A program made the position numbers and the translations under genes. From positions 1 to 33,356 of the forward strand of contig CAZEGO010000002.1 of the NCBI GenBank assembly GCA_964511955.1: a DNA stretch of 33,356 bases, given 5' to 3'. The notes beneath the pieces are model-generated. The model made no database searches, was not told the origin of the DNA, and worked only from the letters and a program-made list of their open reading frames with translations. The DNA is from an uncultured Planctomycetia bacterium (lineage in GTDB: Bacteria > Omnitrophota > Gorgyraeia > Gorgyraeales > Gorgyraeaceae). Of the stretch, positions 31,405-32,409 are shown piece by piece (the first letter of the stretch is position 1; each line of letters starts with the position of its first letter).

Positions 31405-31440
31405 TCCCTATGGGGATATCCTTATTATATCAATATATAA

Positions 31441-31539
31441 GAGAGGCTCCCTTTAAAGAGGCCTCAGGCCATATCTAAAGGCTCGAGGGTTTGATTTAAC
31501 GGGATCTAGATTTCAGAGGGGTGCAAAAATTATGAGAAT
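31441..31539. repeat. Cassette-flanking repeat, copy 1 (core)
   Basis: 31465..31493 matches 32311..32339 at 26/29 positions. 31494..31539 matches 32364..32409 at 41/46 positions. It lies between the toxin stop (31551) and the terminator (31404). Confidence 0.8.
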
Positions 31540-31550
31540 GGTTAAATCTT

Positions 31551-31853
31551 TTAAACGTTACTCAGAAAGCGCCTTATTTGATCATGATTCCCTGCCAACA
31601 CCGCGATGCATTTTTCTCCTTCTTTTCTTATAATAACACGAATATTTCCTTCTACGCCAGCCTCATAGTAAGGTTTGCGTAGTTGTTTATAAAAAAATCT
31701 CGGAGCTATTTTCTGTGCGTCTATCAAATTACAACCTTTGGAATAATAAATATCCAAGGATTCCAGAATCAATCCCACTATCTTCTTTTGTTCCTCACTT
31801 AGATTCTTGAGACTCCTCTGAAAAGAAGGTCTGGAATAGAGCTGTAACGGCAT
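31551..31853 (-). CDS. Probable RelE/ParE-superfamily toxin
   Basis: 100 aa. Its start overlaps the antitoxin stop by 1 nt (TAATG). The N-terminal FQRSLKNLSEEQKKIV and C-terminal IRVIIRKEGEKCIAVLAGNHDQI follow the RelE/ParE pattern. Confidence 0.5.
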   Translation of the reverse strand: MPLQLYSRPSFQRSLKNLSEEQKKIVGLILESLDIYYSKGCNLIDAQKIAPRFFYKQLRKPYYEAGVEGNIRVIIRKEGEKCIAVLAGNHDQIRRFLSNV

Positions 31854-32113
31854 TAATCAATTTTTCCTTTTTTTAAATTGTTAACATACTTCTTAGACAC
31901 TCGTTTTTCTTCCCCTTTTTCTCTAATTGCAAGAATATCTAATTTCTCATACACATCTTCCGAGAAGATCTTTTCCTTTGCCTCAAGAGGAATAAGTTCG
32001 ATTCTATTATTGGAAACTACTATATCAAAGATAGTCCCTTTTTTCAGATCCAGAATATCTGCTATTTTCTTAGGTATTGTTATCTGATGTTTTTCCGTCA
32101 TCTTAACTGTCAT
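31853..32113 (-). CDS. AbrB/MazE (SpoVT-AbrB) type antitoxin
   Basis: HQITIPKKIADILDLKKGTIFDIVVSNNRIELIPL is a swapped-hairpin AbrB-like DNA-binding motif. 86 aa, located upstream of the toxin. Confidence 0.72.
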   Translation of the reverse strand: MTVKMTEKHQITIPKKIADILDLKKGTIFDIVVSNNRIELIPLEAKEKIFSEDVYEKLDILAIREKGEEKRVSKKYVNNLKKGKID

Positions 32114-32134
32114 CTCAATTCACCTCCCAATGCA

Positions 32135-32163
32135 AGTATATCATATAATAAGAAAATAGTAAA
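32135..32163 (-). promoter_or_regulatory. Candidate promoter of the AbrB/RelE-like module
   Basis: On the minus strand: TTTACT (32163..32158), a 17-nt spacer, then TATACT (32140..32135), followed by the shared leader TTGCATTGGGAGGTGA. Confidence 0.35.
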
Positions 32164-32301
32164 GTAGTAAAATAAGAATTTCTTACTTTTTTGTAACTTA
32201 TTGTAAATAAAACCCTCCCCGGGTAAATATTCTGTATAATAGTATCTTTGGGGACAGCCCTTTGCATATTGCCCTATTATAGCGATATATATGGCAATTT
32301 A

Positions 32302-32409
32302 GAGAGGCCCCAGGCCATGTCTAAATGCTCGAGGGTCTGGTGCTTCGACTTCGCTCAGTATAAATTTAACAGGATCTAGGTTTCAGAGGGGCGCAAAAAT
32401 TATGGGGAT
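32302..32409. repeat. Cassette-flanking repeat, copy 2 (core, with a 24-nt insertion at 32340..32363)
   Basis: See copy 1. This copy abuts the Doc stop codon (32409..32411). Confidence 0.8.

Follow-up and report, generated by a model that had tools for sequence, protein, structure and literature searches.

Repeat copies beside two toxin-antitoxin operons of a Candidatus Omnitrophota genome as probable remnants of an undescribed DDE insertion sequence

The window, that is, the whole stretch of DNA analysed here (33,356 bp), is the complete contig C2 of a Candidatus Omnitrophota MAG of 1.66 Mb, which comprises 220 contigs and is 86% complete. Two small minus-strand operons lie near the right end of this contig, each with a copy of the same repeat at its 3' side. 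The genes and signals of this region are as follows:

31372..31404, minus strand: terminator-like hairpin (GGGGUC-N12-GACCCC) with a U7 tail; folding energy -16.1 kcal/mol, z = -1.9
31551..32113, minus strand: toxin-antitoxin (TA) cassette 1, a MazE/AbrB-type antitoxin with a 100-aa putative toxin
31551-31853, minus strand: 100-aa ORF, putative toxin, with only a faint RelE3 match
31853-32113, minus strand: MazE/AbrB-type antitoxin (Pfam MazE_antitoxin, E = 5e-8)
32163-32135, minus strand: promoter-like site of TA cassette 1, from the promoter scan
32409..33025, minus strand: TA cassette 2, an RHH antitoxin with a Doc/Fic toxin
32409-32804, minus strand: Doc/Fic toxin (Pfam Fic, E = 7e-21)
32801-33025, minus strand: RHH antitoxin (RHH_3, E = 3e-10)
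33073-33045, minus strand: promoter of TA cassette 2, TTGACA-17-TATACT (11/12 in the promoter scan)

The 100-aa ORF had been called RelE-like in a preliminary description of this DNA, a label that is not established: the ORF has no match in Pfam, NCBIfam or PADLOC, and its match to RelE3 among PDB entries is faint (E = 0.83). The terminator that had been placed after the first repeat copy was recovered as the hairpin listed above, which sits downstream of the operon formed by this ORF and the MazE gene; our consensus terminator scan had missed it because of its 12-nt loop. Farther downstream of the hairpin lies a 78-aa ORF (30831-31067, minus strand) with about 300 nt of AT-rich DNA upstream of it and without a match in Pfam, NCBIfam or PADLOC.

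The repeat was found 3' of both TA operons, as first reported. The repeat finder delimited two blocks, one of 42 nt with 88% identity (31452-31493 versus 32298-32339) and one of 46 nt with 89% identity, or 41/46 (31494-31539 versus 32364-32409), and a BLAST search against the whole MAG gave E = 8e-10 and 3e-6 for the two blocks. They lie within core copies of about 100 nt (31439-31540 and 32298-32410). The alignment also bore out the 24-nt insertion described in copy 2, located at 32340-32363, and the weaker flanking similarity, which goes on toward lower coordinates. Searching the core against the whole MAG, using BLAST with 7-nt words and motif scans, retrieved no further copy.

Partial matches to either block were present in other genera of the same taxonomic family, each directly 3' of a gene and with unrelated genes as neighbours. 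We scanned a metagenome collection for TTTCAGAGRGGYGCAAAAAT and retrieved 23 loci, 18 of them true relatives; the remaining five (L021, L032, L035, L036 and L041) were chance matches within coding regions and were dropped. The pattern scan of the genome contigs returned G019 only. Once the relatives were aligned, the window repeat proved to be the 3' half of a module of 190-200 nt, named M1, which starts with a terminal repeat, CTCCCCGTGCAAATATT, and closes with an internal copy of it, GGGGTGCAAAAATTATGAGAAT. The left boundary of M1, C(T/C)CCCGTGCAAATATTAGNTATAAT in the plus orientation of the window, is constant, and the flanks beyond it are unrelated at about 15 loci. Its 3' end, TTTCAGAGGGGTGCAAAAATTATGAGAAT, repeats the core of the left boundary, GTGCAAA(A/T)AT, in the same orientation. 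The M1 family was detected in 23 of the 401 genomes of the class, with at most eight copies per genome. Many contigs were also seen to end exactly inside a module, and M1 is therefore a repeat that breaks assemblies.

Copy 1 is 92% identical to L026, a relative from another sample, and copy 2 is about 90% identical to it over both halves; the two window copies share 89% identity. Since they are as close to L026 as to each other, the copies are separate members of a dispersed family, and a simple local duplication is ruled out. A tie between the element and TA cassettes does not hold in general, given that the genes neighbouring M1 relatives are of many kinds. In addition, M1 was absent from the 11 loci of other genomes with the closest Doc homologues, which indicates that the element is not part of the Doc cassette.

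M1 is tied to a transposase by its full-length relatives. The module of L025, L034, L040 and L042 runs straight into a leader, a ribosome-binding site (RBS) and a transposase ORF, and the same run was observed in L019, L020, L027 and L038, where the ORF is truncated or continues off the contig end. L025, from the same subfamily as the window copies, has an internally deleted transposase on the same contig. The intact transposase, of 356 aa, matches Pfam rve_3 (E = 3.6e-12, above its cut-off) and HTH_32; its NCBIfam scores are 93.7 bits for IS3, below the cut-off of 160, and 88.8 bits for IS481, below the cut-off of 224, so that it is assigned to neither family. The gene was found in 26 of the 401 sampled Omnitrophota genomes, and a tblastn search of the window MAG (86% complete) retrieved no homologue.

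Read in the plus orientation of the window, the full element begins with CTCCCCGTGCAAATATT, followed by about 170 nt containing a stem, P1, and by the internal direct repeat GGGGTGCAAAAATTATGAGAAT. After the internal repeat come a leader of about 150 nt with a GGACAAAA/TTGTCC palindrome, the 356-aa transposase and an inverted terminal repeat. In full copies, the palindrome (GGACAAAA.../...TTGTCC) precedes about 100 nt of conserved leader, the RBS and the ORF, and the far end is formed by the inverted terminal repeat (...TTTTTGCACAGG), which was located as ...AAATTTTTGCACAGG at 4-20 nt after the stop codon in L042, L037, L049 and L040. The left-end consensus, CT[C/A]CC[C/T]GTGCAAA[T/A]AT, agrees with the reverse complement of the right end of L042 at 14/17 positions, and the inverted repeats of L044 extend over about 80-110 bp. 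The whole left arm measures about 340 nt and is kept by most copies in other genomes. No target-site duplication was observed at L042 or L044, the two full copies with both flanks, and the exact termini of the element are therefore not fixed. Deletion derivatives that keep both ends, and are thus MITE-like, were found in L037, L101 (510-846) and L105 (555-750).

Given that the module is contiguous with the transposase gene and that the far end carries the inverted terminal repeat, M1 forms the outer portion of the left arm in a DDE insertion sequence (IS) of about 1.4 kb. This IS is undescribed, distantly IS3/IS481-like with an rve-type DDE transposase, and spread through Candidatus Omnitrophota. 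The preliminary description had been unable to place the repeat in a known family, which agrees with an IS that is itself undescribed, though its kind is known. It had also named a match to an IS or MITE end beforehand as the result that would count against its proposals, and such a match, to the left arm of a transposase-bearing IS, is what was found.

Under this architecture, three left-end pieces are recognisable in the window, where R1 denotes a sequence-only covariance model whose training set included copy 1 and not copy 2:

31399..31540, plus strand (IS-sense): copy 1 (M1a), putative transposase-less left-arm module; R1 match at 31439-31540, 86.4 bits
32212..32410, plus strand: copy 2 (M1b), putative left-arm module of nearly full length; R1 match at 32298-32410, 48.5 bits, E = 6e-14
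33094..33190, plus strand: M1c, third putative left-end fragment, of a different subfamily, beginning with CTCCCCGGGCGGATATCTCAGGGAAC

Copy 1 has lost about 45 nt of its 5' part, among them the terminal repeat and one half (5') of stem P1, and its internal repeat, AGGGGTGCAAAAATTATGAGAAT at 31517-31539, is its end. In copy 2, the terminal repeat is degenerate (CTCCCCGGGTAAATATTCTGTATAAT at 32215-32240, also written CTCCCCGGGTAAATATT at 32215), matching the terminal-repeat 29-mer at 23/29 positions, the top score within the MAG; a 16-nt deletion lies near 32311, and the internal repeat occupies 32387-32409. M1c shares 89% of its positions over 91 nt (E = 2e-29) with a region of L067 located 230-320 nt upstream of a transposase fragment, and its first 26 nt recur in L053 upstream of a full transposase. 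The three pieces have the same orientation and alternate with the two TA operons, which read toward them. The motif scan detected no other IS-end motif in the MAG. A full IS may still lie near the window, given the 86% completeness of the MAG and a contig end only about 165 nt beyond M1c. We also observed a motif, CTCCCCG(A/C)G.AC.CCAAAAATCCGAACTTTT, beside M1c (33166-33205) and, flipped, beside a module in G067 (L106); it may mark the end of a further related element.

Taken together, copies 1 and 2 are very probably transposase-less remnants of the left non-coding arm of this Omnitrophota DDE IS. IS copies, or internally deleted non-autonomous derivatives of them, would have inserted into non-essential DNA downstream of the TA operons and then decayed in a small, streamlined genome. 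The remnants would now be without a dedicated function, serving at most as passive 3' untranslated sequence, and that of copy 1 would provide half of a terminator hairpin. Signs of decay are the 45-nt deletion in copy 1 and the 16-nt deletion, 24-nt insertion and degenerate terminal repeat in copy 2. Among the options first raised for the element (a recombination site, a structured 3' UTR or sRNA, or a MITE-like element), only the MITE-like one survives. It does so with a restriction: the copies are homologous to an IS left arm and lack a transposase, but their left repeat is degenerate (copy 2) or lost (copy 1).

Several observations do not fit simple IS debris. Copies 1 and 2 and the module of L018/L033 end at nearly the same point, just past the internal repeat and directly against a toxin stop codon in each case, which random deletion does not predict. 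Most copies elsewhere retain the whole 340-nt arm. Furthermore, modules in the same orientation with accessory genes between them occur on at least eight contigs, a clustering that suggests more than simple decay may be at work. In copy 1, the 15-20 nt that follow the internal repeat resemble the IS right end weakly (17/26), a similarity too weak to claim; the window copies may be internally deleted elements rather than truncations.

The remnants are comparable to the solo ends and MITE-like derivatives of IS3/IS481-type DDE insertion sequences. Like these, they are non-coding and homologous to the end of a transposase-bearing IS, and they belong to a family with many copies in unrelated flanks, terminal inverted repeats in full copies, derivatives deleted between both ends, and decay by indels. 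The M1 family differs from typical IS3/IS481-type elements in its unusually long left arm and in carrying the terminal repeat twice in direct orientation, the two being separated by about 170 nt that include a conserved stem, and its transposase falls below the curated cut-offs of both families. A further difference is that the window copies have neither a recognisable right-end repeat nor a target-site duplication.

A different reading, which we consider unlikely, is that the modules function within a cargo-carrying transposon or capture platform. TA operons lying between a distal left module and the right end of a full IS would then be mobilised by these two ends, in the manner of an ISEcp1-type transposition unit or a one-and-a-half composite transposon, and repeated rounds would build same-orientation arrays of modules and cargo beside a transposase gene. 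Such a layout was found in contig C8 of G067, where a left-arm module and a full IS, both pointing the same way, flank an ars-type operon. Same-orientation module pairs or triplets, 0.9-6 kb apart on the eight or more contigs mentioned above, would have a chance probability of about 0.001 if orientation were random (a rough estimate). TA cassettes reading toward a module were observed four times with four TA types: the two of the window, HEPN/MNT in L018/L033 and YefM/RelE in L024. TA genes also have a precedent as transposon cargo, since type II TA pairs occur inside transposons of the Tn3 family (PMC7157771). However, no identical unit of module plus cargo was found at two different places, no target-site duplications were seen, and the orientation of the cargo is mixed, with co-directional genes in L103 and L104. 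The degenerate state of the window copies also argues against this reading, given that copy 1, without its terminal repeat, could no longer act as an end, as does the lack of a transposase in the MAG. Slightly less likely again is the wider proposal that the modules and the DDE transposase constitute a gene-capture platform, functionally analogous to an integron, that moves or reshuffles cargo such as TA, HEPN/MNT and ars genes. In this proposal, a module would close every accessory operon, all modules would share one orientation, the array would border the transposase gene, and the cargo would be handled by a distal module acting with the right end of the IS.

The arrays themselves (L100-L105, with L103 on G067:C15, and L106 at G067:C8:93500-103003) consist of module pairs or triplets with accessory genes between them. 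The cargo on G067:C8 is an ArsR/ACR3-type operon beside a full IS, and the genes on G067:C15 include an HEPN/MNT pair. Such arrays could result from composite or one-ended cargo mobilisation, from targeted insertion next to existing ends, or from flexible regions tolerating insertions. The systems to compare are ISEcp1-type transposition units, composite transposons and mobile insertion cassettes; all share with the arrays the presence of accessory genes (TA, ars, HEPN/MNT) between IS ends or between an end and a full IS. In contrast to ISEcp1-type and composite units, the M1 ends that flank cargo are direct, not inverted, and the unit is known here from gene layout, not from movement. The TA transposons of the Tn3 family (PMC7157771) likewise have type II TA operons directly beside transposition modules, but their transposase family and architecture differ, and the TA operons of the window lie outside recognisable IS ends and have no transposase.

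It is very improbable that the element is a structured 3' UTR or small RNA under selection for regulating or stabilising the TA transcripts. In favour of such an RNA, each copy sits between a toxin stop codon and the following signal, copy 1 comes before the terminator-like hairpin, and the partial copies in relatives are also found directly 3' of genes in the same orientation. The folding results point the other way. Whole elements fold no more stably than shuffled sequences on either strand (z from -0.9 to +0.8), and an Rfam scan of 30500-33356 with a permissive E-value returned only noise. The hairpin around GGCC-N3-GGCC that had been drawn for both copies can indeed be drawn in each, but its conservation is limited to the closest subfamily (L025, L026 and the window) and does not extend across the family. 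The comparison of twelve full modules supports a single stem, P1, formed by TATCTCTGA ... TCAGAGATA: three of its pairs show compensatory changes, and 94% of cells are paired, compared to 32-60% with a slid partner. P1, the only stem of the family with such changes, is disrupted in both window copies, its 5' half being lost in copy 1 and the stem weakened in copy 2. Moreover, G-U pairs outnumber A-C pairs by 13 to 2 on the IS-sense strand, opposite to the TA sense; thus P1, if it acts as RNA, would be a feature of the transposase leader rather than of the TA transcripts. The varied neighbour genes and the Doc homologues without the element argue in the same direction.

The terminator-like hairpin is itself connected with the repeat, as its 5' half is the reverse complement of the outer end of the M1a remnant (GACCCCTCCC). 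A mirrored situation was observed at copy 2 (32196-32262, minus strand), where GGGGAGGG, the outer repeat in reverse complement, is able to pair with GGGCUGUCCCC and is followed by UUUUAUUU; this fold is terminator-like and weak (z = -0.5).

Finally, an integron attC-type site, or another cassette site of a tyrosine recombinase mobilising TA cassettes, has a practically negligible probability: the layout is tandem and cassette-like, each operon having a repeat at its 3' end, and ATTTAAC ... GTTAAAT in copy 1 fits RYYYAAC/GTTRRRY by eye, but no integron integrase was found in the MAG (86% complete), where TIGR02249 scores reached at most 95 bits (cut-off 265) and the matches look like XerC/D; copy 2 has no left core site and hence no pair of them; homology crosses the supposed G|TT crossover (GTTAAAT); sequence rather than structure is conserved (89-92% between unrelated samples); and elsewhere the element runs on into a DDE transposase. 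Chromosomal integrons commonly contain TA cassettes, and their resemblance to M1 lies in a repeat after each small cassette of a tandem array.

These results remove a candidate new TA-associated RNA or recombination site in favour of an ordinary explanation, probable IS debris. They also define a putative IS, including its ends, leader, transposase and non-autonomous derivatives, in a candidate phylum that has received little study, which helps to annotate Omnitrophota MAGs and to explain contig breaks at these sites. If the same-orientation arrays prove mobile, they would reveal a route by which TA and resistance operons spread in these small genomes.

Some further features of the TA leaders and of the IS were recorded. 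The promoter or leader regions of the two TA operons (32121-32149 and 33030-33055) have TATACTTGCAnTGG(G)AGGTGA in common, and the former matches the outer-repeat 29-mer of the IS at 22/29 positions. We considered these regions as further outer ends of the IS, which is unproven, and the TATACTTGCA leader also precedes an unrelated gene (C33:2766); the shared leader may be a generic strong promoter and Shine-Dalgarno sequence. The GGACAAAA/TTGTCC palindrome was considered as an IS circle or tandem junction, an idea for which the 384-aa transposase gene upstream in L024 had seemed to speak; it was rejected, as that gene belongs to a separate IS481 element. A derivation of the module start from the N-terminal coding sequence of the transposase was also rejected, the ungapped comparison giving only 11/31.

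Just inside the internal repeat (e.g. L025 1560-1625), there is an imperfect palindrome of about 20 bp, TGGACAAAAATGGACAAAAT ... ATTTTCTGTCCAATTCTGTCCA, which is degenerate in one subfamily and may be a binding site for the transposase or a regulator. The separate IS481-type element of L024 (1600-3075), encoding the 384-aa transposase, is inserted into a module copy; its inverted repeats of about 50 bp start with GTGTACAAAC.../GTGTGCAAGT..., and two module-leader units are nested there. In some subfamilies, a small ParB-like/HTH gene (…ARVSQMLNLLNLD…) replaces the 170-nt non-coding module between the outer and internal repeats. This gene was located in L024 (4193-4459), in L101 (5824-6033) and upstream of the transposase in L043 and L050, and its stop codon in L043 falls inside the internal repeat.
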